Below are positions 8,634 through 45,483 of a stretch of DNA of 64,000 nt, in pieces. The DNA is from an uncultured delta proteobacterium. Its GTDB lineage: Bacteria; Myxococcota_A; Polyangia; Fen-1088. The notes beneath the pieces are model-generated. The model worked only from the letters and a program-made list of their open reading frames with translations, searched no databases and was not told the DNA's origin. The stretch is from NCBI GenBank assembly GCA_963796685.1, contig CAWCMR010000025.1, forward strand, positions 128,001 to 192,000. The letters are read 5' to 3'. The position numbers were made by a program, and so were the translations under genes. Position 1 is the stretch's first letter; each line of letters starts with the position of its first letter.

Positions 8634-8771
8634 TCGGATTCGTTCGCCGGCCGGCGCGAGCCGCGAAAATCGAAGCGATGCAACACTTCGTCACCAGACT
8701 TTTGCGAATCGGTAACGCTCGTCCCCAACGATTTCGACTAGCTTCAGACGCCGGAAACCCTGAAAATCAAA

Positions 8772-8815: not shown

Positions 8816-8877
8816 AGGGCCGGCCACATTCCCGTCGCCGGAACGCCACATTCCGTTCCCGTGAAAGTTGCCTAGCT

Positions 8878-10487: not shown

Positions 10488-10510
10488 TCTGTGCCGCCTT
10501 CGGTCCGACC

Positions 10511-16053: not shown

Positions 16054-16206
16054 GGAACTTGTCCGACCGTGAAGGCGCAACATCCGCTCCCGAGAAGCCC
16101 TGGCGGCAGCTGCCGGATGGTACCATATACTATGGTCGCTTCTGAAAGCGCCGCGCTTAGACTCATGGCGTTGCCAGGTGACGGCTCTCACGCCATCTTT
16201 CGGTCG

Positions 16207-16235
16207 TGAGCCAATCCCTGGCCGCCTCGCTACTG
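16207..16235 (+). promoter_or_regulatory. Putative ECF promoter, likely autoregulatory for ECF-1
   Basis: TGAGCC-N17-CTACTG, 33 nt before ATG 16269; the motif recurs at six other sites. Confidence 0.65.
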
Positions 16236-16268
16236 TGTACGCATACGAACCCTTACCCTTGTCGGTCC

Positions 16269-16907
16269 ATGTCAATTCGCCGTTTCCATATACCGCTCTC
16301 GCTCGTGGTCGATCCGGACAATGGGAACGTCAGCGACAGCGACCTTGCGCGGGCGCTCATCGCCGGGGCTGCCTGGGCACACGCCGAAACGTGGAATCGT
16401 TTCGCGCCCATGGTGTTCGGCATGGCGGCCCGTGCCCTGGGTTCGGAATCCGAGGCGGAAGACGTGGTCCAGGAGGTCTTCTACCGCGTGCTCGCGAAAG
16501 CCAAGTCCCTGCGCAATCCCGAGAGCCTGCACAGCTTCATCGTCTCGTTCGCCATCCGCATCCTGAAATGGGAGCTGCGTCGGAAGCGAACGCGAAGTTG
16601 GCTGTCCTTCCGCCAGCCGGAGCTGCTGGCCGATATCGCGTGCGAGACGCTGGACGTCGAGTCGCGCGATCTCCTGCGGAGATTCTATGCGTTTCTGTCT
16701 CGCCAAGCGCCGCGCGAGAGGCTGGTCCTTTCGCTGCGTTACTTGGAATCGATGACGGTCGAGGAGATCGCCAAGGCCATGGAGCTCTCGGTGTCCACGG
16801 TGAAGAGGTCATTGGAATGCGCCAAGAGAAAGTTGTCGCATTGGATCGAGACCGATCTCGAGCTGGTCGGACTTCTCGATGGAAAGCGTGGATTCAATGA
16901 AGACTGA
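16269..16907 (+). CDS. ECF sigma factor (ECF-1)
   Basis: EAEDVVQEVF (region 2) and MTVEEIAKAMELSVSTVKRSL (region 4 HTH). Confidence 0.9.
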   Translation: MSIRRFHIPLSLVVDPDNGNVSDSDLARALIAGAAWAHAETWNRFAPMVFGMAARALGSESEAEDVVQEVFYRVLAKAKSLRNPESLHSFIVSFAIRILKWELRRKRTRSWLSFRQPELLADIACETLDVESRDLLRRFYAFLSRQAPRERLVLSLRYLESMTVEEIAKAMELSVSTVKRSLECAKRKLSHWIETDLELVGLLDGKRGFNED

Positions 16908-18201
16908 TGGTGGTGAACGGACAGATCCTTCTGCGCTCGAGACCCTGACCGCGCTCGCCCGTCACAGCGTGCGTCCTGCCACGCCCGCGCAGCTCAGCCG
17001 GGGCTGGTCCGCGGTCTCGATTCGCCTTGCCGCCCGCAAGGCGCGATGGAAAGGCATGCTTCGTCTGACCTTGGTCGGAGCCACGGCCTCTGCCTTGGCC
17101 TTGGTCGCGCTCGGCATCGTCTCGTGGTCTCGCGCGCATTTGCAGCCCACGGTGCCTGCCCCGCTTGCCTACCAGATCCAGGGTGGCAGCGTCGTAGAAG
17201 GTGGGTACCTTCGGGAATCGGGCAAAGGGGCCGTCAAGCTCGTCTTCGCGGAAGGGACCGAGCTCGTGCTCATGCCGGGAGCGCGCGGGCGGCTACGCTC
17301 GGTCGAGAGCACGGGCGCCCGCATCGCCATCGAACATGGCACGGCGTCCTTCCAGGTCACGCCACGCAGCGATGCCAGGTGGCTGGTCGACGTCGGCCCC
17401 TTCCTGGTCACGGTCAAGGGAACGGTGTTCACGGTTTCCTGGGATGCGGTCAAGGAACGATTCGAGCTCAGGCTGCAGCACGGCCGCGTGTCGGTCACCG
17501 GTCCGATTGCCGGCGGCACGATTCCGCTGCGCGCCGGCCAACGACTGGTCATCAACCTGCCCAAGGAAGAAATCCTCATCACCGAGCAGAAGCCGGAAGA
17601 GGCCTGGCTGGGGATGCCGCCGGGCGGGCCGACCCCCGCGACCGACGTCGCCGCGGAGGATCGTCCGACCGCGGGCCCCGCGGACCAGGGATCCTCGGGG
17701 CCATCCCCATCCGTCGCGGGCAAGACGAATGGTCGGCGCACGTGGGCCGAGGCACTGGCATCGGGTGACTGGGACCGGATTCTCACCGACGTGGACCGCA
17801 TCGGCGTGCAGCGGACGCTGGCCGATGCGTCCAGCGAGGATCTCTTCGCCCTGGCCGATGCCGCCCGATATCGACGCCGCCGCGGCTTGGCGCGCGCGGC
17901 CCTGCTGGCGGAGCGAAAGCGCTTTCCGGAATCGGTCCGCGCCCTCGATGCCGCCTTCCTGCTCGGCCGTTTGGAGGAAGCGAATGAACGAGGCACGAAC
18001 AAGGCCATCGCCTGGTACGACGAGTATCTGGCCCGAGCGCCGAACGGGACGTACGCCTCGGAAGCCCTCGGACGAACGATGACCGCGACCAGCCAGCTGG
18101 AAGGCACCGCGCGGGCGCAGCCCGTCGCCGAGGACTATCTCCGCCGTTTTCCGGATGGTACCTACGCAGGGGCGGCACGAGCGCTGCTTACCGCCCCCTG
18201 A
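16897..18201 (+). CDS. Transmembrane anti-sigma factor with FecR-like and C-terminal TPR-like domains
   Basis: Overlaps the sigma stop; one TM helix; FecR-like IEHGTASFQV...VTVKGTVFTV...LQHGRVSV; TPR-like AAFLLGRL, YLRRFPDGTYA. Confidence 0.85.
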   Translation: MKTDGGERTDPSALETLTALARHSVRPATPAQLSRGWSAVSIRLAARKARWKGMLRLTLVGATASALALVALGIVSWSRAHLQPTVPAPLAYQIQGGSVVEGGYLRESGKGAVKLVFAEGTELVLMPGARGRLRSVESTGARIAIEHGTASFQVTPRSDARWLVDVGPFLVTVKGTVFTVSWDAVKERFELRLQHGRVSVTGPIAGGTIPLRAGQRLVINLPKEEILITEQKPEEAWLGMPPGGPTPATDVAAEDRPTAGPADQGSSGPSPSVAGKTNGRRTWAEALASGDWDRILTDVDRIGVQRTLADASSEDLFALADAARYRRRRGLARAALLAERKRFPESVRALDAAFLLGRLEEANERGTNKAIAWYDEYLARAPNGTYASEALGRTMTATSQLEGTARAQPVAEDYLRRFPDGTYAGAARALLTAP

Positions 18202-18211
18202 TCAGGTCCCC

Positions 18212-19249
18212 GTGGGTCGGTTCACCCTCACCTTGTCTCTTCTCGCGGCCATGCTGTGGGCGACATCCTCGCTCGCGGCAACGGTGGTTCTCGTGCGGCC
18301 CCCCCATCCCACGACGGGCATGACCGAGGCCCTGGTGCGCATCCACGGAGAGCTGGTGTCGGCGGGCTTCGGGGTGGAGAGCGCGGATGGACCGGCCGTG
18401 GAAAGCACGGATGGGGAATCCCGGAGCTGGCTGGAGCAGTTGGCGGCACGCCGTGGCGCCGACGCGGTCATTGCCGTGATGGGAGACAAGTCGCCCGATT
18501 CCGTCGAGGTATGGGTCGTCGATAAGGTGACCGGAAAGTCGGTCGTCCGCCATGTCCCCTTTCGCCCGCTGTCGGCAAAGGGGCCGGAGACCCTGGCCAT
18601 TCAAGCCGTCGAGCTTTTGCGCGCCAGCTTCCTCGAGATCGATCTCACTTCCAATGCCCGACCGAGCGAGGTCAAACCGGCTCCGCCGCCGACGGTGGTT
18701 CACTTCGTGGAGATGGAACAAAGGGCGAAACAGGCGGAGCGTTTTGGCGTCGAAGTGGGTGGGGCTGCGAGCATGAGCTTGGACGGGGTCGGTCCGGCGG
18801 TCATGCCCGTCGTGCGTTTCGCTTGGGCCGCGCGACCATGGTTCATCGCGCACGCGACCGTGGCTGGAATGGGCAGTCGACCCAGCGTCCGAACCTCGGC
18901 GGCGAGCGCCCAGGTCGATCAGGAATTCGCCCTGCTCGGTGCCAGCTACTGCTTCAGGGTCGACACGCGGTTGCGGCCCTTCGTCTCGCTTTCCGCCGGC
19001 GTGCTTCATACCGCGGTGGAGGGCCGCGCCGACTGGCCGTTGCAAGCACAGCATGCGGGACAATGGTCCTTCTTGCTCGACGGGGGAATCGGCGCGGAGG
19101 CGCCGCTGCGAGAGCGTTTCTACCTGTCGCTGGCCGCACGCGCGCAAGTCGCCGACCCCTATCCCGCCGTTCGTCTTGCGGGCGCCGTGGTCGCCACGGC
19201 TGAACGTCCAAGCATCCTTCTGACCCTCTCGCTCGGAGCCTGGCTATGA
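18212..19249 (+). CDS. Exported protein with periplasmic N-domain and probable small (about 8-strand) OM beta-barrel
   Basis: Signal peptide ending SLA; Pro linker; amphipathic strands including LRPFVSLSAG; terminal LSLGAWL beta-signal-like end. Confidence 0.65.
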   Translation: MGRFTLTLSLLAAMLWATSSLAATVVLVRPPHPTTGMTEALVRIHGELVSAGFGVESADGPAVESTDGESRSWLEQLAARRGADAVIAVMGDKSPDSVEVWVVDKVTGKSVVRHVPFRPLSAKGPETLAIQAVELLRASFLEIDLTSNARPSEVKPAPPPTVVHFVEMEQRAKQAERFGVEVGGAASMSLDGVGPAVMPVVRFAWAARPWFIAHATVAGMGSRPSVRTSAASAQVDQEFALLGASYCFRVDTRLRPFVSLSAGVLHTAVEGRADWPLQAQHAGQWSFLLDGGIGAEAPLRERFYLSLAARAQVADPYPAVRLAGAVVATAERPSILLTLSLGAWL

Positions 19250-20181
19250 ACCTACATCGATACTGCTTCACCTTCCTCTGGCTGGCGATCGGCTGCACAC
19301 GCGGCACGCTGGATGCCGTGTTGCCTGGGCCCGCAACGGACGGCGGCGGCAATGCCGGCGGCAACGAGGCCGGCATCGGCAGCGTGACCTGCCCGTCGCC
19401 CGCGCTCAAAGCGGGCGACACCAACCAGACGGTCCAGGTGGGCGCCACGACCCGCAGCTATGTCTTGCACATTCCCGCGACGTACGACAACAGCAAGCCA
19501 GCTCCCCTGATCCTCGATTTCCATGCCCAGAATGGCTCGGGGCCGAGCGAGCTGTCGCTGTCGCCCTATCCCGCGCAAACCGATCCGGAGGGCGTCGTCA
19601 TGGCCTTTCCGACCGGCCTCAAAGGACCGGGGGGCGCCGCCTGGAACGTGGGACCGTGTTGCGTGGCCGGGGTCGACGATGTGGCGTTTGCCAGGGCGCT
19701 CGTGGCGCAGGTACAGGCCGCCGCCTGCATCGACCCCAAGCGCGTCTACGCCGTGGGCCTGGCCACGGGGGGGGGCATGGCCTACTACCTCGCGTGCCAC
19801 ACGGCCGATATGGTCGCGGCGGTGGCGCCGGCCGCGTTCGACTTGCTGGAAGAGAACGTCGGCGATTGCAAGCCATCGCGCCCCGTCACGGTGATCTCGT
19901 TTCGTGGCACCGCCGATACGTTGGTGCCCTACGTCGGCGGGTACTCCACGGTGGTGCCGGGCATGCCGGTCACCTTTCTCGGCGCGCAGGCGACCTTCCA
20001 GAAGTGGGCAGAGCTCGACCAGTGTACGGACTCGCCATCGCTGACGGACAGCAGCGGCTGCTCGACCTATTCCGCGTGCCAGGGCGGCGTCGAGGTGGTG
20101 CTGTGCACGAAGCAGGGCGGTGGACTGGAAGCCGGCAATCCCAGCGTCGCGTGGCCGGTGCTCAGGCGCCACACGCTGTGA
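19246..20181 (+). CDS. LpqC/PHB-depolymerase-type esterase-fold lipoprotein, predicted catalytically inactive
   Basis: AIGC lipobox; colinear with the 33103 paralog but GLATG replaces GYSLG and KQGGGL replaces KQGGGH; ATGA-coupled to the barrel gene. Confidence 0.8.
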   Translation: MNLHRYCFTFLWLAIGCTRGTLDAVLPGPATDGGGNAGGNEAGIGSVTCPSPALKAGDTNQTVQVGATTRSYVLHIPATYDNSKPAPLILDFHAQNGSGPSELSLSPYPAQTDPEGVVMAFPTGLKGPGGAAWNVGPCCVAGVDDVAFARALVAQVQAAACIDPKRVYAVGLATGGGMAYYLACHTADMVAAVAPAAFDLLEENVGDCKPSRPVTVISFRGTADTLVPYVGGYSTVVPGMPVTFLGAQATFQKWAELDQCTDSPSLTDSSGCSTYSACQGGVEVVLCTKQGGGLEAGNPSVAWPVLRRHTL

Positions 20182-25657: not shown

Positions 25658-27022
25658 TTGACGATGCATCTTCGATCAAGTTTGGTTCTTGGCATTGTGA
25701 CGGGAGTCGGTACCGTATTCGCATATGGTTGTTCGCCGTCGGGAGGGACCATGAGCGGCAGCGGAGGAAGCACGGCTTCGAGCAGCGGCGGGCAAGTTGG
25801 AACGGGTGGCGCATCGGAAAGCGGCGGCCAAGTCGGTACGGGTGGCGCGTCGGGAACCGGTGGCGCGTCGGGAACCGGTGGCAAGGTCGGGAGCGGTGGC
25901 GCGACGGGTACCGACAGCACGACGACAGGGAGCGGTGGGGCTACAGTCAGCGGCGGCAATACCGGCTCTGGAGGGGCTGCCGGCGGCGCGACGGGCATGG
26001 GCGGAACCGTGAGCAGGGACGGGGCCGTAGATGGCGCCGGCAAACGTGACGGCGGCGGCATGCGTGATTCCGGTCCAGCCACCACGGGCGGTGGGACTGG
26101 GACCGGCGGCTCGACCGGCGCAGGCGGCACATCTGGCCCCGGCGGCTCGACGGGCGCACCCGGAACGATCAGAAAGTACTTCGGCAACATCGATACCTCA
26201 GGTTCCATCCGCTCGGATTTCAAGTCCATGTGGGATCAGTTCAGTCCCGAGAACGCCGGGAAATGGGGCTCGGTGCAGGGCAGCTCTGCAAGCACCTTCA
26301 ATTGGTCTACGCTGGACGCCATGTACAAGTACACCCAGGACAACAATATCCTCTTCAAGGAGCACTGTTTCTTTTGGGCTGCTCAGCAACCGAGCATGGC
26401 GACCAACAGCAATATCGAGACCGTCGGCAAGGCGTGGATGAAGGCCTTCTGCGATCGCTACCCCAAGACCGCGATGATTGACGTCTTCAACGAGTCGCTG
26501 CACAACTCGCCGGCGTACAAGACCGGCATGGGCGGCACCGGCACCACAGGCTACGACTGGCTCATCAATGCCTTCACATGGGCGAGGGAGGCGTGTCCAA
26601 ACGCCATCTTGCTCTATAATGATTACAACACCATCGAGTACTCCAACGAAAACAGCGGCGTCATCAAGCTGGTGAAAGCCATCAAGGCCGCCGGCGCCCC
26701 CATCGACGGGGTCGGCTGCCAAGGCCACGATGTCGGCAAGGTCTCGGCGAGCACGGTGACGACTTACGTCAACAATATCATTAGCCAAACGGGCGTGCCC
26801 GTCTACATCACGGAGATGGACGTCGGGGAAGCCGACGACAACACGCAGATGACGAAGATCAAGGATGTCGTCACGCCGCTTTGGGCCAACGATCAGGTGA
26901 AGGGCATTACCTACTGGGGCTATATCGTCGGCCGGACGTGGAGAGACAATACCGGGCTCATGACGGACAGCGGCACGAAGCGCGCGGCGCTGACCTGGCT
27001 GCTGGGCTTCCTCGGCCGATGA
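25658..27022 (+). CDS. GH10 endo-1,4-beta-xylanase, lipoprotein with Gly-rich linker
   Basis: AYGC lipobox; PENAGKW, DVFNES (acid/base), YNDYN, GCQGH, YITEMD (nucleophile). Confidence 0.9.
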   Translation: MTMHLRSSLVLGIVTGVGTVFAYGCSPSGGTMSGSGGSTASSSGGQVGTGGASESGGQVGTGGASGTGGASGTGGKVGSGGATGTDSTTTGSGGATVSGGNTGSGGAAGGATGMGGTVSRDGAVDGAGKRDGGGMRDSGPATTGGGTGTGGSTGAGGTSGPGGSTGAPGTIRKYFGNIDTSGSIRSDFKSMWDQFSPENAGKWGSVQGSSASTFNWSTLDAMYKYTQDNNILFKEHCFFWAAQQPSMATNSNIETVGKAWMKAFCDRYPKTAMIDVFNESLHNSPAYKTGMGGTGTTGYDWLINAFTWAREACPNAILLYNDYNTIEYSNENSGVIKLVKAIKAAGAPIDGVGCQGHDVGKVSASTVTTYVNNIISQTGVPVYITEMDVGEADDNTQMTKIKDVVTPLWANDQVKGITYWGYIVGRTWRDNTGLMTDSGTKRAALTWLLGFLGR

Positions 27023-27048
27023 GCCGTTCCGTGGGACGTTGGGAACTG
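27020..27048 (+). promoter_or_regulatory. Putative ECF promoter, likely autoregulatory for ECF-3
   Basis: TGAGCC-N17-GAACTG, 29 nt before ATG 27078; overlaps the GH10 stop codon. Confidence 0.65.
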
Positions 27049-27077
27049 CAGTCCTAAGGAGCTAGACTGGACTATCA

Positions 27078-27716
27078 ATGGGCCCCCGCAGTTCCCATGT
27101 AAAGCTGGCGCTCGTGGGCCCGCCCGCACGCGAGCACCTGAGCGACGCCGAATTGGCGCGTGCTCTGATATCCGGTGCGGCGTGGGCCTATGCGGAAACC
27201 TGGAACCGCTTTTCTCCCGTCGTCTTCAACATGGCGATCAGCGCGCTGGGATCGCCATCGGAGGCTGAAGACATCGTCCAGGAGGTCTTTTGCCGTTTGG
27301 TCGGAAAGGCCAAGACCCTTCGCCAGCCGGAATGCCTCCGCAGTTTCATCGTCTCTTTCGCCATTCGCGTCCTAAAATGGGATCTGCGCCGCAGACGCGT
27401 GCACGGCTGGCTGACCTTCGAACCTGGGGAGGCGCTGATAGACGTGGTCCGAGTCTCCCTCGACGTCGAATCTCGTGACATACTCCGGCGTTTCTATGCA
27501 CTCTTGTCCCGGCTTGGCGCACGCGAGCGCCTGGCGTACGCGTTGAGGCACATCGAATCGATGACCATCGAGGAGACGGCGCAGGCCATGGACCTGTCGG
27601 TGTCGACGGTGAAGAGGCTGCATGAGCGAGCGACGGACCAGCTATCCAAGTGGAGCGAAACGGATTTCGAGCTGACCGGGCTTCTCCTGAGAAAGCGTGG
27701 GTGGCATGAGACCTGA
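27078..27716 (+). CDS. ECF sigma factor (ECF-3), paralog of ECF-1
   Basis: SDAELARALI, EAEDIVQEVF, SFIVSFAIR, LSVSTVKRL. Confidence 0.9.
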   Translation: MGPRSSHVKLALVGPPAREHLSDAELARALISGAAWAYAETWNRFSPVVFNMAISALGSPSEAEDIVQEVFCRLVGKAKTLRQPECLRSFIVSFAIRVLKWDLRRRRVHGWLTFEPGEALIDVVRVSLDVESRDILRRFYALLSRLGARERLAYALRHIESMTIEETAQAMDLSVSTVKRLHERATDQLSKWSETDFELTGLLLRKRGWHET

Positions 27717-29043
27717 TGTCGGTGGAACGCCCGATCCCTCTCCACTCGCCATCCTGACCGAGTTGGCCCGCGATGCGCGCAATCAGCTTCCCCGCCCCAC
27801 GCCCGAAGAACTGGGAGACAAGTGGGAGTTGGTCTCGACGCGTATTGCTGCGCAGAAGGCTCGTCGCAGGATCCTCATTCGACTTTCGATGGCTGGTGCG
27901 CTGGCCACCGCAGCAATAGCGGCATGGGTACTTCCGCGGCCGGGTCGACTGTCAGTGCCTGCCACGGCGCCGGCGGCCCTCAGCTATCGAATTGAAGGCG
28001 GAAACGTCGTAGACGGCGGCTACCTGCGCGAGTCCGGCTCCGACACGGTCAGGATGCGATTTACCGAGGGTACGGAATTCGTGCTCAGCCCGGGAACCCG
28101 GGCACGCCTGCGATCGGTCTCGAGCTCGGGCGCGCGCATCGCCATCGAACATGGCACCGCATCCTTCCAGGTCACACCGCGCAGCGAGGCGCTGTGGCAA
28201 GTCGACGTCGGGCCATTCCTTGTCACGGTGAAGGGAACCATGTTCACGGTTTCCTGGGATGCGGTCGGCGAACGATTCGATCTAAGACTCCGGCATGGCG
28301 AGGTGTCGGTGACCGGACCGGTTTCCACGGGAGCAATCTCCGTGAAAGCGAATCAGCGATTGGTCATCGATCTGCCCAAGAAGGAAACCGTGATCACGGA
28401 GGAAGACGATGGAGAGAGCTCTGCCGGGATCGGCTCCCCGCGGTCAGAGAGCACGGACCAGGTCAAAAGCCCCGCCTCCGAGCGCCCCTCGCCGTTGGTA
28501 GCCCGACCGACTGGCCAAAATCCCGCGTTGTCGACCGAACGGAGGACTGCCAAGTCTGGCGCGGGCCGAGGTTGGGGCGAAGCCGTGGCGGCAGGACAAT
28601 GGGATCGCGTCCTCACCGAGGTCGATCGCGCCGGCGTGAAGCAAACCCTGGCGCACGCCTCCAGTGAGGACCTTCTGGCGCTGGCCGACGCGGCCCGCTA
28701 TCGGCGACGAACGGGGCTGGCGCGTGCGGCGCTGCTGGCCGAACGCGATCGCTTCCCCGGATCCCCCTCGGCCCTGGACGCCGCGTTCCTCCTCGGCCGC
28801 CTCGAAGAATCGCGACACGGCGAGCGGCAAGAGGAGATGGTCGAGGCGATTCGGTGGTACGATACATACCTTTCGGGAGCGCCTTCAGGCACCTACGCTT
28901 CCGAGGCGCTGGGACGGAAGATCATTGCGACGAAAGGCCTCCGCGGGGCCGCCGCGGCCGAATCTCTGGCCAGGGAATACCTGCGACGTTTCCCTGGCGG
29001 CCCCTATGCCGGCGCCGCGCGCGAGCTGCTGCTTCATCCGTGA
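27697..29043 (+). CDS. FecR-like/TPR transmembrane anti-sigma factor, paralog of 16897
   Basis: Shared blocks GGYLRESG, GARIAIEHGTASFQVTPRS, ASSEDLxALADAARYRRR, ALDAAFLLGRLEE. Confidence 0.85.
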   Translation: MGGMRPDVGGTPDPSPLAILTELARDARNQLPRPTPEELGDKWELVSTRIAAQKARRRILIRLSMAGALATAAIAAWVLPRPGRLSVPATAPAALSYRIEGGNVVDGGYLRESGSDTVRMRFTEGTEFVLSPGTRARLRSVSSSGARIAIEHGTASFQVTPRSEALWQVDVGPFLVTVKGTMFTVSWDAVGERFDLRLRHGEVSVTGPVSTGAISVKANQRLVIDLPKKETVITEEDDGESSAGIGSPRSESTDQVKSPASERPSPLVARPTGQNPALSTERRTAKSGAGRGWGEAVAAGQWDRVLTEVDRAGVKQTLAHASSEDLLALADAARYRRRTGLARAALLAERDRFPGSPSALDAAFLLGRLEESRHGERQEEMVEAIRWYDTYLSGAPSGTYASEALGRKIIATKGLRGAAAAESLAREYLRRFPGGPYAGAARELLLHP

Positions 29044-29053: not shown

Positions 29054-30082
29054 GTGCGTCGGCTGGCAATCGACGTCGTCCTGCTGACGGTGCTTCTCTG
29101 GGCTGTGGATGCTTCGGCAGCCAGCGTGATGCTCGTGCGGCCGCCGAATCCGTCCGCCCCCATGGCCGAAGCCATCGTGCGCGTGCGCGGCGAGCTCATA
29201 TCCGAGGGCTTCCAGGTGGATGTCATGGACGGACTCAAGGGCGCGGAATCGCGCGCTTGGCTCGAGCAGCTGGCGGAAGCCCACAAAGCAGATGCGGTCG
29301 TCGCCGTCCTCGGCGATGAAACACCGGACTCGGTCGAGGTTTGGGTGATCGACAAGGTAACCGAAAAGACGGTCGTCCGACGAATACCCTTCAAGCCGCA
29401 ATCCGACCACGCAGCCAAGACCTTCGCCATTCACACGCTCAAGCTTCTCCGCGCCAGCTTTCTGGAAATCGACCTCCGGCTCGGTGGCCGGCCTAGCGAA
29501 GCCAGGTCGGTCCCTCCGGAGGTGGAACACTTTGTCGATGGCGAAAACCCACCCCATCGGGAGGGACGCTTCGGCGTCGAGCTCGGTGGCGCGGCGGTCA
29601 TCGGCCTTGGCGACATCGGGCCGGCGCTCCTCCCCGTCATGCGCCTGGGCTGGGCCATCCGGCCATCGCTGGTCGCCCAGGTGACGGTGGGGGGGTACGG
29701 GTCGCGTCCCAGCGTCCAAACCGACGTGGGCAGCGCCCAGGTCGCCCAAGAATTTGCCGTGCTCGGGGCACGCTACCGATTTCTTCCCGGTCGTCGCGTA
29801 CGCCCCACCCTCTCTCTTTCGGCGGGGGTGCTTCACTCCCGCGTCGAGGCCCAGGCCCCGGCCGATTCGCCCTACCAAAGCCGAGATGCGGCCTTGTGGT
29901 CGTTTCTGCTCGATGGCGGTGCCGGCATTGGGGTCGCACTTGCCGAACGGTTCGAGATAACATTGGCGGCCCATGCACAAATCGCGAACCCATATCCCGC
30001 CATCCGCTTCGACAGATCGGTCGTGGCCACGTCCACCCGTCCCAGTCTTCTTTTCATCCTGACGATTGGGGCTTGGCGATGA
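29054..30082 (+). CDS. Periplasmic N-domain + small OM beta-barrel protein, paralog of 18212
   Basis: GTG start; signal peptide; PDSVEVWVxDKVT, LLRASFLEIDL, WSFLLDGG; ends LTIGAWR. Confidence 0.7.
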   Translation: MRRLAIDVVLLTVLLWAVDASAASVMLVRPPNPSAPMAEAIVRVRGELISEGFQVDVMDGLKGAESRAWLEQLAEAHKADAVVAVLGDETPDSVEVWVIDKVTEKTVVRRIPFKPQSDHAAKTFAIHTLKLLRASFLEIDLRLGGRPSEARSVPPEVEHFVDGENPPHREGRFGVELGGAAVIGLGDIGPALLPVMRLGWAIRPSLVAQVTVGGYGSRPSVQTDVGSAQVAQEFAVLGARYRFLPGRRVRPTLSLSAGVLHSRVEAQAPADSPYQSRDAALWSFLLDGGAGIGVALAERFEITLAAHAQIANPYPAIRFDRSVVATSTRPSLLFILTIGAWR

Positions 30083-31591
30083 AGCGCGTATTGCCAACGG
30101 GCGCGATCCTCATCACCTTGGTGGGTTGTTCGCGTGGCAATCTCGACGTGATCGAACGGCTGCCATCTTCGGACGGCGGCGGCAGCATCGAGTATGACGG
30201 CGCCGCGTCGGCGCTGGACTCGGCCATAGACGCGGGCTCACCGCCCAGTCTCGAAGACTTGCAGCGAGCGTACGTCGACCTGCGGTTTGGAATGCTCCTC
30301 CATTTCGGAATCCTCACCTACACGGGCAATTGGGCGGATGCCAACCTCCCCATTGACCAGTTCAATCCCACCAAGCTCGACGCCACCCAGTGGGCCGATG
30401 CCGCAGTAGCCGCGAACATGAAGTACGCCATCCTGAGCGTCCGCCACATCGATGGATTCGCGCTCTGGAACACGGCAACCACCAACTTCGACGTGGGCGC
30501 CATCAGCTGGAGAAACGGCAAGGGAGACGTGGTACGTGAATTCGTCGATGCCTTCCGCTCCCGCGGGCTCAAGGTCGGATTCTTGTACCCCATGTGGGAC
30601 GCCACCCAAGGACTGGGCAACAGCGGCGTGGGCAACACCACCATCACGCGTCCCCAGATTGAATACCTGAAGGCTCAGCTCACGGAATTGTTGTCGAACT
30701 ACGGCACGATCTCGTTTCTCCATTTCACGGCCTGGGCCTGGCAGATGGGCCACAATGCCGTGCCCTACCAAGAAATTCGGGAGCTCGTGAAGTCCCTGCA
30801 GCCAACCTGTCTCATTTTCGACCAGACACAACTGATGAACCTGTGGGATGTGGACGCGACGGTCTACGAAGAATCATGGGGCATTACCCCATCCGCCGAC
30901 AACACATTGCCCTCGACCGAGATGCAGAAGATCAACAGCAGCGGCGGAAACAACTGGTTTTGGGCTCCGGACATCGGCGGGCTGATGACCGCGACCGATA
31001 TTGCCCAGAACCTGCAGACGCTCGAAGGGCGTTGGACGAATTTTCTGCTGAACGTTCCGCCCAACCGCGATGGCCTCCTGGACCCCTCGATGGTCGCCAT
31101 CCTGGCCCAGGTCGGCTCGCTGTGGAATCCCGACCTCTCGCGCAAACCCTTGCCGGCGCAAGGCCCACAGAATGAGTACCCATACACACCGGTAAGCGCC
31201 AGCGCCACGAGCGGCAATGCAGCCAACGCGATCGACGGCGTCGACACCTACAACGGCTATTCGGTCTGGCAGTCGTCGGGCCCCCTGCCGCAGTCGATCA
31301 CCCTCGACCTAGGCGTCGAGCGCCCGGATGTTGGAACCCTCACCTACGTGCCACTCTACGCCGGTAGGGAATCCCCCAGTACCGACGGCGCGATCACCTC
31401 CTATGCCATTCTCACCAGCGGAAACGACAACAACTTCACGGTGGCGACGACCGGAACCTGGCCGTCGAGCACGGCGATGAAGACCGCCGTCTTTGGCCCC
31501 GTGGCGGCCCGCTACGTTCGGCTGGAGGCACGGGCAGCCACTGGGAATAACGCAGACTGCCACCGAGATCACCGTAGGCGCTCGACGCTGA
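30079..31591 (+). CDS. GH29 fucosidase-fold lipoprotein with F5/8 (CBM32-like) domain, predicted inactive; +1 frameshift near 31555 in the last codons
   Basis: LVGC lipobox; LRFGMLLHFG, FNPTKLDATQW, QLTELLSNYG, LLNVPPNRDGLL; HFTAW where W(F/L)DG is expected; SITLDLG...ARYVRL. Confidence 0.8.
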
Positions 31592-31637
31592 CTCGACGCC
31601 TCGACGCACCAGACAATGACCTGGCGCCGTTCCACGT

Positions 31638-31670
31638 TTTCCCGAGGCTTTCCCGAGGCTTTCCCGAGGA
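31638..31670 (+). repeat. Three direct 11-bp repeats just upstream of an ECF promoter
   Basis: tttcccgaggc tttcccgaggc tttcccgagga. Confidence 0.85.
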
Positions 31671-31673
31671 TCC

Positions 31674-31702
31674 TGAGCCGAAATGGCCGTCAGCCGGAAC
31701 TG
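31674..31702 (+). promoter_or_regulatory. Putative ECF promoter (GAACTG class)
   Basis: TGAGCC-N17-GAACTG. Confidence 0.65.
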
Positions 31703-31729
31703 TTACGCCGAGGAGTTTATCTTTCGCTC

Positions 31730-33016
31730 ATGCCTACCACAACACTTCACGTAGACTGCGCGAGTGCAGAATACTGGGCCGAAAACCCGCGGAGGCACGT
31801 CTTGACACGAAGCTCGCAGATCCGTTGTCTTCTTTCCCTCGCCATCTCACTTGGCGCTGTCGCATGTTCATCGAATGCCCCGCCCCAGAGCGGAGCTGGC
31901 GGCCAAGGCGCGGGTGGTTCGGCGGCAAGCGGCGGCAAGACCGGTAGCGGCGGCGCCAACTCTGGCGGTACGGGTGGAACCAGCTCGGCGACAGGCGGCA
32001 GCTCGGCGACAGGCGGCAGCTCGGCGACGGGTGGCAGCTCCGCGACGGGTGGCAGCTCCGCGATGGGCGGCAGCTCCACCGGTTCGACCGGAGGCGTGGC
32101 CGGCACCGGCGGGTCTGGTGGCAAAGGCGGAACCACCAGCGCTGCGGGCGGCGCCGGTGGCACCGCGACCGGGGGAGTAGGCGGAAGCGCGGGCTCGACG
32201 GCGACTGGCGGCACAGGACCGGCCTCGGGTGGGGCTTCCGGCGCGGACGCCGGCCGCGACGGGGCGGCGCCTGGCACCGGTGGCCGGGGCAGTGGCGGCT
32301 CCGCAGGACAGGGTGGTGGCACTGGCGGACAATCGAACCCCGATGGATCGGTGGGTGGCAGTGGCGGTTCCATCGCCTACAACCCCTGCAAGGCCAGTCC
32401 CTGCGTCATCCTGCCGCTCGGGGACTCCATCACCCATGGCTACAATTCGAGCGACGACGCCGGCTACCGCTCGGCGCTTTTCAAGCTGGTCGTCGCGGCG
32501 AACCAGAATGTCACGTTCATTGGTTCGCTGAGCAATGGTCCAAGCACCGTGTCGGGCAAGACGTTCCCCAAGAATCACGAGGGGCACGATGGAATTACGG
32601 TCACTGGCATCACAGGCTACGTCCCGCCCGCCAAGGCCTTCACCGCGACACCCCACATTGTGTTGTTGCACATCGGAACCAACGACATAACCAACAACGC
32701 CGATCCTTCGACCATCGCAAGCCAGCTCGACGTTCTGGTAGGCGATCTCGTCAAGGCTGCACCCGATGCACTCATCGTGGTCGCGAAGATAGTACCGCTC
32801 GGCTACACCAGCACGACCTACAACAACTACATCGCCAAAATCCCGGGCGTTGTCAGCGGACATGCTGCCAACAACGAGCATGTCGTCATGGTCGACATGA
32901 GCACGCTGCCGACCTCCGATATCCGGGGCAGCGGCAACGTGCACCCGACCGATCAGGGATACGCGGATATGGCGAACCTCTGGTACCAGGCCGTCAAAGG
33001 CTACTTGCCGAACTGA
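31730..33016 (+). CDS. SGNH/GDSL esterase (CE3-like), lipoprotein with Gly-rich linker
   Basis: AVAC lipobox; LPLGDSIT, HEGHDG, LLHIGTND, VHPTDQGY; start may be TTG 31802 after GGAGG. Confidence 0.85.
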   Translation: MPTTTLHVDCASAEYWAENPRRHVLTRSSQIRCLLSLAISLGAVACSSNAPPQSGAGGQGAGGSAASGGKTGSGGANSGGTGGTSSATGGSSATGGSSATGGSSATGGSSAMGGSSTGSTGGVAGTGGSGGKGGTTSAAGGAGGTATGGVGGSAGSTATGGTGPASGGASGADAGRDGAAPGTGGRGSGGSAGQGGGTGGQSNPDGSVGGSGGSIAYNPCKASPCVILPLGDSITHGYNSSDDAGYRSALFKLVVAANQNVTFIGSLSNGPSTVSGKTFPKNHEGHDGITVTGITGYVPPAKAFTATPHIVLLHIGTNDITNNADPSTIASQLDVLVGDLVKAAPDALIVVAKIVPLGYTSTTYNNYIAKIPGVVSGHAANNEHVVMVDMSTLPTSDIRGSGNVHPTDQGYADMANLWYQAVKGYLPN

Positions 33017-40797: not shown

Positions 40798-43600
40798 GTG
40801 AGAAGCCGTGCATTCCCCGTTGGTTCCATCGCTCTTCTAGTCCTGGCAGCGTGCGGGTCCAAGGGCTCGTCCGAACCCGGACATACAGGTGGAAGCACCG
40901 GCACCCCCGGCTCCGGAGGAGCGTCGAGCAATGGCGGCACGAGCGCTGGCGGCGGAGACACGACACGCGGTGGGGCTGGGGGAGGCGGTGGCGCTGCGAA
41001 TGGGGGAGCGCCCGGGTCGGGCGGTATGACCGGGTCGGGTGGCAAAGGCAGCGGCGGAGCGGGCGGTCAAGCTGGCAACGCAACTGGTGGGGCGGCTTTC
41101 GGCGGCCAAGCCGGCAAGGGAACAGGCGGCGTGGCAACCGGCGGAACGGCCGGCATGGGTGGCGCGGCGACAGGCGGCCAAGGCGGCGCCGGAATGGGGG
41201 GCGCAGCAACCGGCGGGCAAGCCGGCAGCGGAGCGGGAGGAAATGGCTCTGGGGGGGTTGGTTCCGGCGGCCAGGGGGCGGTATCCAGCGCGTTGGTCAA
41301 TACCTACGACGGAGAGCGAACGACCACGGTCAGCTTCGACCTTGCCTGGAAGTTCCATCTCGGCGACGTCAGCGGCGCGCAGAACACGACCTTCGACGAT
41401 TCGTCCTGGACTTCCTTGGACGTGCCCCATGATTGGAGCATCTCGCTGCCATTCAACCAGAGCTCGGCGGGAACCTATGAAGGCGGGTACCTCGACGGTG
41501 GCTTGGGCTGGTACCGAAAGACCTTCGACCTCCCTGCTTCGGCCTCGGGACAGAGGGTCATGGTCCAATTCGATGGCGTGTACATGGACAGCACCGTGTA
41601 CATGAACGGCACGCAAGTATGCGCCCGTCCCTACGGCTATTCCTCGTTCGAATGCGACTTCACCTCGAACGCCAAGGTTGGCGCGTCGAACGTGCTCGCG
41701 GTCAAGGTCAACAACCAATTGCCCAGCAGCCGCTGGTACTCGGGCAGCGGCATCTATCGCCACACTTGGCTCAAGACCGTGAATCCGGTGCGCGTAGCCT
41801 ACACGGGCTCGCAGGTATCGACGCCGACGGTCTCGACCTCGAGCGCCACCGTCAATATTGCCGTCACGGTCCAGAATGACGGAACGACCGACCAATCGGT
41901 GACCGTGGCGAAGCTCGGTTCGCGACGCCTCGGGCACGGAGGTGGGCAAGGGCTCTTCGGCGGCGACCAGCGTCACCGCCGGGAAGACCGCCAACGTGAC
42001 GCACACAGCGACCGTCTCCAATCCCAAGCTCTGGTCACCCTCCTCGCCCACCCTCTACTCCGTGGTGACAACCGTGTCCGTGGGCGGCTCCGTGGTCGAC
42101 ACGTACACCACCCCGTTCGGCATTCGCACCTTCGCCTTCGACGCGAACACGGGGTTCTCCCTGAACGGCACCAAGATGAAGCTCAACGGCACGTGCAATC
42201 ACCACGACCTGGGCGCCTTGGGTGCGGCTACCAACTCTCGCGCCATCGAGAAGCGCCTGCAGATGCTCAAGGACATGGGCGTCAACGCGCTTCGCACGTC
42301 CCACAATCCGCCCGCGCCCGAGCTGCTGGATATTGCCGATCGCCTCGGACTCATGGTCATGGATGAGGCCTTCGACTGCTGGTATGCGGGCAAGCACACC
42401 TACGACTACGGGCGATTCTTCAACCAGTGGTATGATACGGACGTCCAGGGCTACGTGGCCCGCGATCGCAACCACCCGAGCGTCATCATCTGGAGCATCG
42501 GCAACGAGGTCGCACAGGCCGGCGACAAGGCCACGGTGCAGAAGCTGATCACCTCGGTTCACGCCAAGGACACCACCCGCCCCATCACCCAGGCCTATGC
42601 GGCGTGGGTCGACGTCAGCAACATCACGGGTCTCGAAGACCTGGTGGGAATCAACTACGCCCCGGATCGTTACGACTCGGTTCATACATCCAACCCGAGC
42701 TACAAGATGTTCGCCAGCGAGTCGTCGTCGGCCCTGCGCAGCCGAGGCATCTACAATAACAACAACAATCAGGAGTCGTCCTACGACGACTCCTGGGCCG
42801 GCTGGGGGGCGGGCGCGGAAGCGTCGTGGAACAGCGTCAACACGCGCGCGTGGATCGCCGGCGAGTTCATCTGGACCGGCTTCGATTACATCGGCGAGCC
42901 CACGCCCTACCAATGGCCCTCCAAGAGCTCGTACTTCGGGGCCATCGACACCGCCTACTTCCCGAAGGACATCTTCTATTTCTATCAGAGCAAGTGGAAC
43001 GCCGGCGGCCCCACCATGGTCCACATCGTTCCCATGAATTGGACGAATTGGACGAACGGGCAATCGGTGAAGGTCTTGGTCTACACCAATGCCGACAGCG
43101 TCGAGCTCTTCCTCAACGACAAGTCGCAGGGTTCGAAGACCATGAATTCCACCACCGGGCACCTCCAGTGGTCGGTTCCATTCGCCACGGGAACGCTGCA
43201 GGCCAAGGCCACCAAGGGCGGTACGGTCGTTGCGACCGACACGGTGAAGACCGCCGGGGCAGCGGCGGCTCTGTCGCTGACCACAGACCGGGCTTCGATC
43301 ACCGCGGATGGACGCGATCTGTCCTTCGTCGAGGTGGACATCGTCGACGCTCAGGGCGTTGTCGTCCCGCAGGCCAACAACAAGGTCGATTTCACGATCA
43401 GCGGGCCAGGGGCACTGGTGGGCCTCGACGCTGGAGACTCGACAAATCACGACTCCTACAAAGGTACGTCGCATGCCGCCTTCAGCGGCAAGTTGATGGC
43501 CATCATCCAGTCCACGACTACAGCCGGAACGATCACGCTGAAGGCGGCCTCCGGATCGCTTGCCGGCAGCGCGGTGAACATCACGACGACTACACCCTAA
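40798..43600 (+). CDS. GH2 glycoside hydrolase (beta-galactosidase-like) lipoprotein, +1 frameshift near 41911
   Basis: LAAC lipobox and Gly linker; VPHDWSI, FDGVY, SRWYSGSGIYR, HHDLGALG, RTSHNP, WSIGNE, WTGFDYIGEPTPY. Confidence 0.9.
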
Positions 43601-43646
43601 GAAGGCACGCAGGCAGCAGCGACACGGTCATCAGAGTCGATAGCTT

Positions 43647-43684
43647 AACCGCCCAGGCCGCTCCGGCTGGGCGGTTTCTTTTCC
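43647..43684 (+). terminator. Intrinsic terminator after the GH2 gene
   Basis: AACCGCCCAG/CTGGGCGGTT stem followed by TCTTTT. Confidence 0.7.
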
Positions 43685-43749
43685 ATGAAATCGCGCGGCT
43701 TCGATGCTCCTCCCATGATGGAATTCGAGCCCTGCCTCCACTGCGAGAC

Positions 43750-45483
43750 ATGATGGTTTTACTACGGAAGTCGTGCGCGCATACGAAACCCTCGAGCTTC
43801 GTCGCCCTTGCCCTTCTCTGGGGAATCGTGGGCTGCGGAACGAGTGGTGACGGTGTCCCGTCAGGCGGAACCGGTGGCGGAACAGGTCCGCAGCGCGACA
43901 GCGCGGTCGGCTCAGGAGGCTCCCACGGTACAGGGGGCAGCTCGGGCGCCGGCGGTGCCACGGGTGGACAGAGCGGTAACGCGGGTGCGGGAGGTCGAAC
44001 CGGTGGTGCCGGTGGGCAATCCTCGGGCAGCGGCGGCGGCGCAGGGGCCGGAGGTGCTTCCGGCACAGGTGGCACAGCGGGCAAAGGGGGAGCGGCAGGC
44101 ACCGGCGGTGCCACAGGAGGTACTGGCGGCCTGCCAGGCACAGGTGGCACCGCCGGTTCGGGAGGCTTGGGCGGTGCGACAACGGACGGAGGCGTGACTG
44201 GCACGGGCGGAAGGACAGGAGCCGGCGGCACCCCTGCAACCGGCGGCACCAGCGGCGCGACAGCAACGGGCGGCAAGGCTGCAACGGGTGGCGCAGGCGG
44301 CCTGGGTGGCTCGACCGCAACCGGCGGCGCCGGGGCCGGCGGCACAGCCGGCACGGGGGGGTCTACAGCGCTCGCGGCGACCCCACCCATGGGCTGGAAC
44401 TCGTGGAACACCTTCGGATGCAGCCCCAGCGACACCCTGATCCGCGGCATTGCCGACGCGATGGTCACGAGCGGGATGGCGGCGGTCGGGTACGTGTACG
44501 TCAACATCGATGACTGTTGGATGAATGGCCGCGATGCCAGCGGGAATCTTCGGCCAGACCCCACGAAATTCCCCAATGGCATTTCCGCCGTGGCCGACTA
44601 CGTACACGGCAAGGGTCTCAAGCTCGGAATCTACGAGGTGCCAGCGGCTGTGACTTGCGCCGGCCGCGGCTCGTTCGGCTCAGCCGCTGGCGTGGGAAGC
44701 CTGGGACACGAAACCGCGGACGCCAAGTCTTTCGCCTCCTGGGGTGTCGACTACCTCAAGTATGATTACTGCTGGGGGGACATGAAGGGCTTCAAAGTCA
44801 TGAAGGACGCCCTTGTCGCCACTGGCCGCCCGATCTTCTACAGCATCAACCCGGCCTCTGGCACCGGGGCGTCCTGCGTGCCGCCGACCTGCACGATCGA
44901 TCTGGTGAACATCGCCAACATGTGGCGCATCGGATTCGACATCAATGCCAGTTGGTCGTCGGTCCTGAGCTGCATCGACTTGGACAAACCCCTGTCCAAG
45001 TACGCGGGGCCTGGACACTGGAACGATCCGGACATGCTCGAGGTCGGCAAAGGCATGTCGGCTGACGAGGATCGCTCGCACTTCGGCATGTGGGCGATGC
45101 TGGACGCCCCTCTGTTGACGGGCAACGACCTCCGCTCGATGAACGCAAGCACCAAGGCCGTCCTGACCAACACGGACGTGATCGCCGTGAACCAAGATCC
45201 TCTCGGGGCGCAGGCCACGGTCGTGGCCACACCGGGATCCAATCAGGAAATCTGGTCCAAGTCGCTCACGGGAACCAACACGCGTGCCGTCGCGCTGTTG
45301 AACCGCTCCGAGGCGGCGGTCTCCATGACGGTTCAATGGAGCACGATCGGCATTCCGACCGGGGTCGCCACGGTGCGCGATCTGTGGAACCAGAAGGATC
45401 TCGGCTCGTTCACCGACTCTTACACGGCAACCAGCGTCCCGAAGCACGGCGTCGTGATGCTGAAGGTAACGAGCGGCCCCTAG
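43750..45483 (+). CDS. GH27 alpha-galactosidase-like lipoprotein with Gly-rich linker
   Basis: IVGC lipobox; TPPMGWNSWN, IDDCW, YLKYDYC, WRIGFDI, WNDPDMLEVG. Confidence 0.9.
   Translation: MMVLLRKSCAHTKPSSFVALALLWGIVGCGTSGDGVPSGGTGGGTGPQRDSAVGSGGSHGTGGSSGAGGATGGQSGNAGAGGRTGGAGGQSSGSGGGAGAGGASGTGGTAGKGGAAGTGGATGGTGGLPGTGGTAGSGGLGGATTDGGVTGTGGRTGAGGTPATGGTSGATATGGKAATGGAGGLGGSTATGGAGAGGTAGTGGSTALAATPPMGWNSWNTFGCSPSDTLIRGIADAMVTSGMAAVGYVYVNIDDCWMNGRDASGNLRPDPTKFPNGISAVADYVHGKGLKLGIYEVPAAVTCAGRGSFGSAAGVGSLGHETADAKSFASWGVDYLKYDYCWGDMKGFKVMKDALVATGRPIFYSINPASGTGASCVPPTCTIDLVNIANMWRIGFDINASWSSVLSCIDLDKPLSKYAGPGHWNDPDMLEVGKGMSADEDRSHFGMWAMLDAPLLTGNDLRSMNASTKAVLTNTDVIAVNQDPLGAQATVVATPGSNQEIWSKSLTGTNTRAVALLNRSEAAVSMTVQWSTIGIPTGVATVRDLWNQKDLGSFTDSYTATSVPKHGVVMLKVTSGP

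Follow-up and report, generated by a model that had tools for sequence, protein, structure and literature searches.

A soil myxobacterium lipoprotein descended from GH29 glycosidases probably senses plant sugars rather than cutting them

We analysed a 64,000-nt stretch of DNA from an uncultured delta proteobacterium of the Polyangia (contig CAWCMR010000025.1 of assembly GCA_963796685.1, positions 128,001 to 192,000; hereafter the window) and focused on the gene at 30079..31591, which encodes a lipoprotein with the fold of glycoside hydrolase family 29 (GH29). Because the catalytic residues of this protein are lost and its gene lies in a sigma-factor signalling cassette, the lipoprotein of this soil myxobacterium probably senses plant sugars rather than cutting them. 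The gene is the fourth (slot 4) of cassette 2, behind genes for an extracytoplasmic function (ECF) sigma factor, a FecR-domain anti-sigma candidate and an uncharacterised protein, X2. In the paralogous cassette 1, slot 4 is occupied by Y1, a lipoprotein of unrelated, esterase-type fold. An earlier note, made from the letters of this DNA, had drawn attention to the gene, and what it claimed is taken up below with the results that bear on it.

Results

The nucleophile position of a GH29-like lipoprotein is occupied by Thr

The features of the target gene are as follows.

30079..31591, + strand: putative GH29-like pseudoenzyme lipoprotein, fourth gene of cassette 2; the stop at 31589-31591 needs a change of frame near 31555
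30127..30183, + strand: lipobox Cys17 and conserved N-terminal tether (CSRGNLDVIERLPSSDGGG), common to the slot-4 proteins of both cassettes
30247..31158, + strand: GH29-type (beta/alpha)8 domain with apparently remodelled pocket (PF01120, Foldseek)
30448..30450, + strand: codon ATC of Ile124, which replaces the second His of KHHDGF (relatives' alignment)
30727..30729, + strand: codon ACG of Thr217, which stands where GH29 enzymes have their nucleophile Asp (as aligned with solved chains and with relatives)
31201..31554, + strand: F5/8 type C (CBM32-type) domain (PF00754); its last strand, ATEITVGARR, lies in the next frame at 31559-31588
31555..31555, + strand: approximate position of an extra base (frameshift) by comparison with the closest homologues, 11-12 codons before the proper stop

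Pfam assigned residues 92-347 of the target to Alpha_L_fucos (PF01120; E 1.9e-32, 113.5 bits against a cut-off of 25.2) and residues 375-492 to F5_F8_type_C (PF00754, the CBM32 fold; E 1.1e-11, 45.4 bits against a cut-off of 28.2). An AlphaFold2 model built from 50 relatives (predicted local distance difference test, pLDDT, 79) was compared with the PDB by Foldseek, and every listed match was a GH29 structure (best E 1.5e-25), with whole-chain template modelling (TM) scores of 0.45-0.51 that count in 51 disordered N-terminal residues and a mobile C-terminal domain. The GH29 fold and the retained CBM32-like domain, both of which the earlier note had proposed, are borne out by these matches, the last strand of the CBM32 being out of frame in this copy (see below). 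The same holds for its assignment as a lipoprotein: by inspection of the translation, the N-terminus MKRVLPTGAILITLVGC reads as a lipoprotein signal with the lipobox LVGC (pattern [LVI][ASTVI][GAS]C), and Cys17 is invariant in a 24-row alignment of the clade described below.

In the frame that starts at ATG 30079, RHIDGF occupies residues 122-127, QLTELLSNYG residues 200-209 and FLHFTAWAW residues 213-221. In phmmer residue alignments to five solved GH29 chains, four of which reach the site, Thr217 faces the Asp of WFDG/WLDG in 5k9h, 4zrx and 3mo4 and the engineered Ala (the D172A position) in the D172A/E217A mutant 3uet. The fifth chain, 3eyp, matches poorly in this stretch, its WWDG motif placing the Asp one column past Thr217. 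A profile of 24 nucleophile-less relatives gave the same placement of Thr for Asp against 5k9h and against the GH29-A enzyme 6gn6, whose LWFDFS pairs with LLFTGW of the profile, and paralogues at ~60% identity bear Asp in exactly the Thr217 column.

Alignment to the PF01120 hidden Markov model and to GH29 structures therefore gave a family match with Thr217 opposite the nucleophile Asp, and, apart from the poorly matched 3eyp with its Asp one column off, most of the sequence and profile alignments place no other Asp at the nucleophile site. Two readings of the earlier note, the exchange of the nucleophile Asp for Thr (ACG, 30727-30729) and of KHHDGF for RHIDGF, were thus recovered, the former in solved-chain, family and profile alignments and the latter in the target frame and the family alignments.

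Beyond Asp217, Tyr169 and His251 are replaced in the target as well, and the His-His pair of KHHDGF, which is reported to bind the sugar in the T. maritima structure, has lost its second member. For the acid/base residue, E217 of AfcB lands on Val258, in a weakly aligned loop, and Glu265 and Asp259 are conserved. We considered Thr217 as a substitute nucleophile and ruled it out because a relative carries Ala at this position (P0097, see below) and because His124 and Tyr169 were lost together with the Asp. Because the protein is a member of GH29 by sequence and fold but fails the defining catalytic features of the family, it is best filed as a putative GH29-derived pseudoenzyme and not as a fucosidase.

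A conserved clade without the nucleophile

Searches for GH29 relatives yielded 1525 proteins at E<=1e-5 among 8000 scored candidates, and the best 120 were aligned with the query (121 rows). Column 217 of this alignment contains Asp in 97 proteins, Thr in 23 and Ala in one. The 23 sequences nearest to the query (62-100% identity) make up the Thr rows, and Asp occupies the column in 97 of the 98 others. RHIDGF (22 of 23), FTGW or FTAW, and FDQTQL are shared among the Thr rows, whereas the Asp rows have RHHDGF, FDGW and LDHTHL. Ile124 is present in 22 of the 23 Thr rows and also in the Ala row, P0097, which is the deepest nucleophile-less member and combines Ala at position 217 with RHIDGF, the tether and a grouping with the Thr clade. 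The Ala of P0097 shows that a Thr side chain is dispensable at this position.

In a FastTree tree of 129 rows (the 121 proteins and 8 locus translations), the 25 nucleophile-less rows (24 Thr and one Ala; 24 proteins and the locus L001) formed one side of a branch with a Shimodaira-Hasegawa-like support of 100, which argues for a single origin. A second independent loss in GH29, suggested by the identity rank of P0097, was ruled out by its RHIDGF motif, its tether and its grouping with the Thr clade. Among 79 loci from species-representative genomes, His-Ile together with Thr occurred only in L001, a metagenome-assembled genome with 85% identity to the target, and 76 loci had His-His together with Asp; the second His of the motif is His in 78 of the 79 loci and Ile only in L001. 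Two Luteibacter loci (L073 and L074; match 10001-11212, 28% identity) have gaps beside the nucleophile column and Thr-Glu there, in a weak alignment.

The ratio of nonsynonymous to synonymous substitution rates (dN/dS) between the target and L001 was 0.16 over 477 codons. Taken by part, it was 0.17 for the GH29-like domain, 0.13 for the CBM, 0.17 for the adjacent sigma gene and 0.29 for the FecR gene. Nine substitutions separate the two clades at the 87% level (F73L, T121V, H124I, P166V, L168F, Y169L, D217T, H251Q and P255L), and the replacement residues are themselves conserved (Thr217 in 23 of 23 rows; Ile124, Leu169 and Gln251 each in 22 of 23). All nine positions fall within residues 73-255, on five consecutive strands of the model or directly behind them, and the CBM32 contains none. 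Because the substitutions are all at barrel strands and spare the CBM32, the pocket appears to have been rebuilt and then held fixed, with the CBM staying as it is in the active paralogues. As far as sequences can tell, the catalytic loss is an old, conserved feature of a clade of single origin under purifying selection and not random decay. The age, conservation, single origin and purifying selection of the loss go beyond what the earlier note had observed.

Slot 4 of the paralogous cassette encodes a dead esterase with the same tether

The earlier note had placed the target in the same slot as a dead esterase and had concluded that two unrelated hydrolase folds lost their nucleophile in an equivalent context. 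Cassette 1 consists of the following genes.

16206..20181, + strand: paralogous cassette 1 (ECF sigma, FecR, X1 and slot-4 lipoprotein Y1)
16269 (probable start) to 16907, + strand: ECF sigma factor of cassette 1 (Pfam)
16879-18201, + strand: FecR protein of cassette 1 (Pfam)
18212-19249, + strand: X1, paralogue of X2
19246-20181, + strand: Y1, slot-4 lipoprotein of esterase fold with Ala173 and Leu294, start/stop-coupled to X1

The two cassettes share 63% identity in the sigma factor, 58% in FecR and 55% in X. Behind the paralogous trio, the open reading frame (ORF) 19246-20181 encodes GLATG opposite GxSxG, in keeping with the placement given by the earlier note. Y1 matched solved feruloyl esterases (9j07, 1.3e-23; 8jh8, 5.6e-16) and has the feruloyl-esterase/polyhydroxybutyrate (PHB)-depolymerase fold; its G-L-A-T-G faces the GxSxG of three solved esterases, with Ala for the nucleophile Ser. 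Y1 is therefore, in the corresponding slot, another hydrolase of unrelated fold that has lost its nucleophile. At position 294, Y1 has Leu (GGGL) where the catalytic His is expected, an assignment that we infer from the conserved GGxH motif rather than from a solved structure. This motif recurs as DGGHTP in the active-looking esterase of locus L007 (see below), whereas the other C-terminal His (position 309) does not.

We aligned the top 120 of 1986 Y1 relatives (P0122-P0241; E<=1e-5 among 5895 candidates). Among these best 120, the nucleophile column contains Ser 61 times, Ala 36, Gly 12, Leu 7 and Tyr 4 times, and the putative catalytic His is His in exactly 30 rows. These 30 rows are Sorangium-type sequences with Gly/Ser-rich linkers, no tether and an intact Ser-Asp-His triad, and they form one clade (support 96). 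All 90 tether-type rows are without the putative His (84 by regular expression, 6 by eye), and 59 of the 90 are also without Ser. On the esterase FastTree tree, parsimony requires 7 changes between Ser and non-Ser, at least 2 of which are forced by well-supported branches. Many rows of this family are annotated as polyhydroxybutyrate depolymerase by their sources.

Similarity between Y1 and the target is confined to residues 15-35 of both proteins (21 residues, 52% identity, E 7.6e-5). This tether consists of the lipobox Cys, then (S/T)RG(N/T)LD(V/A)... and DGGG. Of the 24 nucleophile-less GH29 protein rows, 23 carry it and P0019, with its shortened N-terminus, does not; none of the 97 Asp-bearing GH29 rows, which have Gly/Ser-rich linkers, carries it. 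In a six-frame motif scan of the window and the 79 loci, just 3 ORFs carried the tether, and in every case an X gene directly precedes the ORF. Searching the protein collection with the tether region (residues 6-46) returned 6 matches among 35 candidates, all of them known Thr-clade GH29 proteins, by a word-based method that is insensitive for a 20-residue motif. In both families, the tether thus appears to track catalytic loss. This link between the two slot-4 proteins goes beyond the observations of the earlier note.

The target is the fourth gene of an ECF sigma-factor cassette

Three genes of cassette 2 precede the target.

27078..27716, + strand: ECF-type sigma factor of cassette 2 (Pfam Sigma70_r2 and Sigma70_r4_2; NCBIfam sigma70-ECF, 1.2e-20)
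27697..29043, + strand: FecR-domain anti-sigma candidate with C-terminal tetratricopeptide repeat (TPR) region, overlapping the sigma gene at its 5' end
29054..30082, + strand: X2, a secreted member of an uncharacterised Myxococcota family, whose model combines an alpha/beta domain at the N-terminus with an 8-stranded outer-membrane beta-barrel at the C-terminus

The anti-sigma candidate has a FecR match at residues 118-203 (25.0 bits against a cut-off of 24), and a TPR_16 match below its cut-off at residues 327-397. On inspection, its translation shows a single hydrophobic stretch near residues 59-79. The stop codon of X2 overlaps the ATG 30079 of the target as ATGA.

For X2, the GTG start at 29054 was picked by comparison with X1 and L001. 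No Pfam or NCBIfam family matched X2; a search of representatives found 1171 clusters of the X family at E<=1e-3, and in the Atlas all 30 nearest clusters were unnamed, Myxococcota being the commonest phylum in the three listed. The AlphaFold2 model (pLDDT 88) comprises a signal peptide, the alpha/beta domain and the C-terminal barrel, which Foldseek matched to the 8-stranded barrels of OmpA, OmpX, OmpW, Ail and OprF (E 5e-9 to 1e-6; TM score, by target, 0.63-0.74). A complex prediction for X2 (residues 22-342) and the mature lipoprotein (residues 17-493) scored 0.00 in both runs and speaks neither for nor against binding.

L001 has the same order of sigma, FecR, X and lipoprotein genes at 74-82% identity (sigma 81.5%, FecR 74.9%). 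In the window as in L001, the nucleophile-less gene follows directly behind sigma, FecR and X with overlapping stop and start codons. The sigma, FecR and X proteins of the window had no tblastn match at E<=1e-5 in the other 78 loci.

Apparently active paralogues lie near an ECF/FecR pair in one locus

For ten Asp-bearing (D-clade) Polyangia loci, the same-strand ORFs in the 4.5 kb upstream were searched with Pfam; nine loci yielded such ORFs, 36 in all, and L004 yielded none. A FecR gene was present upstream in one locus only, L007. Its genes at 3416-11350 encode, in this order, a barrel-like lipoprotein, an ECF sigma factor, a FecR/TPR protein, a Calx-beta lipoprotein, an esterase (GFSMGG and GGH) and an Asp-bearing GH29+CBM32 protein. 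The esterase and the GH29 protein of L007 have Gly/Ser linkers and no tether, and they keep their catalytic residues. The presence of apparently active members of both families side by side fits sensors derived from the enzymes of one pathway. An hhalign comparison of the barrel-like L007 ORF (3416-4519) with the X alignment gave a probability of 3.4% and E 0.013 and established no homology.

A frameshift near the end of the target gene

The target gene contains a probable frameshift that the earlier note did not report. The interval 30079..31591 comprises 1513 nt, which is not divisible by 3, and the frame of 30079 is open to 31947, across the start of the downstream GDSL esterase gene. The closest homologues have 501-506 amino acids and end in ...GNNA-x-ATEITVGARR. 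Because the homologue-like ending ATEITVGARR* and the TGA at 31589-31591 sit in the next frame of the window, there appears to be one surplus base at ~31555, which may be either a mutation or an assembly error. In the protein collection, a 100%-identical match is present for the neighbouring Y1, and none turned up for the target. A second gene of the window is split in a similar manner.

40798-43600, junction near 41915: GH2 glycosidase split between two overlapping frames, with GH2_N in ORF 40798-42366 and GH2, GH2_C, DUF4982 and GH2_C5 in ORF 41942-43600

The occurrence of a second frameshift in the same 64 kb may be a sign of assembly indel errors.

Genes around cassette 2

Cassette 2 is flanked by two genes of possible relevance to its output.

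25658-27022, + strand: GH10 xylanase gene, directly upstream of cassette 2
31616..33016, + strand: GDSL/SGNH esterase with intact GDS motif (Pfam Lipase_GDSL_2, 3.3e-17), possible regulon member

An orthologue of the GDSL esterase (84% identity) also adjoins the L001 cassette, but upstream and on the opposite strand. The lipoprotein signal of the window esterase is followed by a long linker, rich in Gly and Ser, that contains GGSSAT-type repeats. Linkers of this style also occur in the active GH29 and esterase paralogues, whereas the dead ones have the tether instead.

The upstream regions of the sigma gene of cassette 2 (27030-27077) and of the L001 sigma gene (5900-5951) have in common the 9-mer TGGGAACTG at -39/-38 from the start codon. 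The 9-mer resembles the ECF -35 element (GGAAC), which suggests that autoregulation with a very short leader is possible. An ECF-promoter-like pattern derived from the region upstream of the cassette 2 sigma gene was discarded, since it gave 2 sites against 4.35 expected by chance, its spacing was off and it did not recover its source site.

The window as a whole is a plant-polysaccharide island (13558-16275 on the - strand, 25658-27022 and 42826-45483 on the + strand, and 57214-64000). It encodes GH9+CBM3, GH10, a GH27-type alpha-galactosidase, several alpha/beta-hydrolase esterases and a sodium:solute symporter, and it also contains an L-arabinose isomerase/kinase/epimerase-type cluster with a LacI regulator. 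Amid these genes for carbohydrate-active enzymes (CAZymes), an ORF at 49843-51159 on the - strand encodes a DDE_Tnp_1 transposase domain (E 3e-21).

Discussion

A putative receptor for ECF signalling

The target may well act in ECF signalling as a receptor that binds glycans without hydrolysing them, by analogy with the GH10 sensor of clostridial RsgI6, and we put the chances of this reading at about even. Such a receptor would descend from a GH29 glycosidase with CBM32, would be an outer-membrane-directed lipoprotein, and would be encoded by the fourth, translationally coupled gene after the ECF sigma factor, the single-pass FecR/TPR anti-sigma factor and the outer-membrane protein X. Its lipid anchor and the conserved 20-residue tether, common to the slot-4 proteins, would hold it at the envelope, where the remodelled pocket and the unchanged CBM32 would bind the decorated plant polysaccharide on which the active paralogues act, or fragments of it. 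Occupancy would then be passed on via X, via the periplasmic FecR/TPR part of the anti-sigma factor or via both, so that the sigma factor is released and could turn on neighbouring CAZyme genes such as the GH10 gene upstream and the GDSL esterase gene downstream. The sequences and models show the fold, the loss of four conserved pocket residues, the conservation of the clade and the purifying selection on it, the gene order and coupling in two genomes, the parallel dead esterase and the association of the tether with catalytic loss. Binding, the nature of the ligand, contacts to X or FecR, the way the signal runs and the set of regulated genes are what we infer. Our guess for the ligand, from family membership and from the surrounding GH10, GH9, esterase and arabinose genes, is a fucosylated plant glycan.

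Several observations weigh against this reading. The FecR match of the anti-sigma candidate barely exceeds its cut-off, and genomic context is available for only 2 of the 25 nucleophile-less genes. In L007, an ECF/FecR pair is followed at a distance of 2.9 kb by an Asp-bearing and apparently active GH29 gene, so dead copies are not alone in having such neighbours. The fourth gene could also be controlled by the sigma factor instead of feeding into it. In the esterase family, 31 tether-type proteins keep Ser, and their inactivity hinges on the assignment of His294. The candidate acid/base residues Asp259 and Glu265 are kept in the target, which leaves room for altered chemistry, and the frameshift, if real, would remove the last strand of the CBM32 in the target copy.

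Some of these points lead to other explanations. The lipoprotein might bind glycans or act as a scaffold at the outer membrane without feeding a signal into the cassette, for example in substrate capture or as the first regulated product. Fold retention, catalytic loss and purifying selection would fit this equally, genes downstream of sigma/anti-sigma pairs are often regulon members in ECF systems, and both the active-looking GDSL esterase next door and the active enzymes downstream of the ECF/FecR pair in L007 are in line with it. We nevertheless consider it unlikely. The overlap of stop and start codons with X and the presence of the tether across unrelated folds point to a fixed, stoichiometric partner in the module, and the co-occurrence of tether and catalytic loss in two families is unexpected for a mere regulated product because the regulated enzymes of L007 keep their catalytic residues and are without the tether. 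Decay of the target copy into a pseudogene, with a real frameshift, a truncated CBM32 and a fusion to ~130 out-of-frame residues, would account for the read-through of the frame of 30079 to 31947. It would also be consistent with the missing 100%-identical protein in a collection that contains Y1, if the gene had been annotated as broken. This seems quite unlikely, given that the last 11-12 codons alone are affected and the remaining ORF is intact and without stops, that the GH2 frameshift near 41915 suggests assembly indels in the same 64 kb, and that the clade overall is under purifying selection.

A further explanation, which we regard as improbable, is that the protein is still an enzyme with changed chemistry or a changed substrate, using another carboxylate (in an inverting or transglycosylating reaction) or carrying out a non-glycosidase activity. 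In both clades, Asp248, Asp259 and Glu265 vary little or not at all, and the strong conservation of the replacement residues Ile124, Leu169, Gln251 and Thr217 points to selection on a new pocket. Annotated pseudoenzymes have also proved active in other families, as is reported for USP53. Against this, four conserved pocket residues have given way to hydrophobic or non-ionisable ones, and the nucleophile position tolerates Ala in P0097. In the same slot, moreover, the parallel esterase family has exchanged its Ser for Ala, Gly, Leu or Tyr, so that catalysis seems dispensable there. To our knowledge, no GH29 enzyme with an alternative nucleophile has been described, and our literature searches found none.

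If the target is a receptor for ECF signalling, the finding would offer a general principle by which insoluble, decorated plant polysaccharides are perceived by soil myxobacteria through both of their membranes, with paralogues of enzymes recycled as non-cleaving receptors. It would also assign a role to the large uncharacterised Myxococcota family X, and natural variants that bind without cleaving could reveal the substrate of the active GH29+CBM32 subfamily. A broader generalisation, which we offer only tentatively and with some doubt, is that Polyangia have a modular, repeatedly duplicated trans-envelope device for glycan sensing. It would be composed of an ECF sigma factor, a FecR/TPR anti-sigma factor, an OmpA-like barrel and a plug-in receptor lipoprotein, the receptors being duplicated pathway enzymes (GH29 fucosidase-like or feruloyl/PHB-type esterase) that were fitted with a common 20-residue tether and in which catalysis was killed. 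Because the X family comprises 1171 representative clusters, such a device would imply hundreds of sensors of this kind. For annotation, the receptor reading, if right, would carry a warning that there are conserved non-enzymes among the genes named "alpha-L-fucosidase" or "PHB depolymerase" in these genomes; in the alignments they would number 24 of the 121 GH29-like proteins and 90 of the best 120 esterase-like proteins.

Comparison with known systems

In full-text literature searches, we found no natural nucleophile-less GH29 and no account of this clade or of the four-gene module. By sequence, the closest known proteins are the solved GH29 enzymes (the GH29-B type 5k9h, BT2192 3eyp and B. 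infantis AfcB 3mo4/3ues; for GH29-A, 6gn6), with which the target shares PF01120, the (beta/alpha)8 fold, the appended F5/8 type C domain and the HFG, HxDGF and YG..I motifs. It differs from them in having Thr for the nucleophile Asp, Ile for the second His of HHDGF and Leu for the Tyr of the GxYxS strand, in its N-terminal lipoprotein tether and in the location of its gene inside a sigma/anti-sigma module. The Asp-bearing paralogues from Polyangia, Streptomyces and Paenibacillus (e.g. P0024-P0121 and L002-L041) are 40-67% identical to the target over their full length. Like the target, they have the GH29+CBM32 architecture and many are lipoproteins. Unlike it, they keep RHHDGF, Tyr169, Asp217 and His251 and have Gly/Ser-rich linkers and no tether. 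A sigma/FecR/X trio of the window type was detected by tblastn beside none of the 78 Asp-type loci.

With regard to signalling, the cassette resembles FecI/FecR/FecA in its ECF sigma factor, its single-pass anti-sigma factor with a (marginal) FecR-domain match and the outer-membrane component alongside. It differs in that a lipoprotein and an 8-stranded barrel with a periplasmic domain together form the outer-membrane component and in that the anti-sigma factor has C-terminal TPRs. Neither the Pfam matches of the cassette nor those of the 54 scanned ORFs of the window include a TonB-dependent receptor domain. FecR-like anti-sigma factors with TPRs are mentioned for group ECF267 by Casas-Pastor et al. 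(PMC7826278). The Dma anti-sigma factors of Bacteroides include an 8-stranded outer-membrane barrel that is proposed to sense the outside (PMC10927553). This barrel within an ECF sigma/anti-sigma unit is the likeness to the present cassette. In the Dma proteins, barrel and anti-sigma factor are one polypeptide, whereas here they are encoded by two ORFs (27697-29043 and 29054-30082) and joined by a fourth, enzyme-derived lipoprotein.

By analogy, the nearest functional counterpart of the target would be the anti-sigma factor RsgI6 of C. thermocellum. Its GH10 module is described (PMC4711584) as having very low activity and retained polysaccharide binding and is read as the sensor of SigI6, the SigI6/RsgI6 pair controlling plant-cell-wall enzymes. 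What the two systems would share is a module of a GH family as the candidate extracytoplasmic sensor for an alternative sigma/anti-sigma pair. The GH10 module of RsgI6 is fused to the anti-sigma factor of a monoderm, whereas the target is a separate lipoprotein of a diderm that is accompanied by an outer-membrane barrel protein. Moreover, the anti-sigma candidate of the window matches FecR and not RsgI_N, and its sigma factor is ECF-type and not SigI. The finding is best placed with two known kinds, namely enzyme-derived sensors and ECF cell-surface signalling. The modular device proposed above, if true, would be for diderms what the RsgI biosensors are for clostridia, and it would amount to a natural library of dead CAZymes that trap their substrates.

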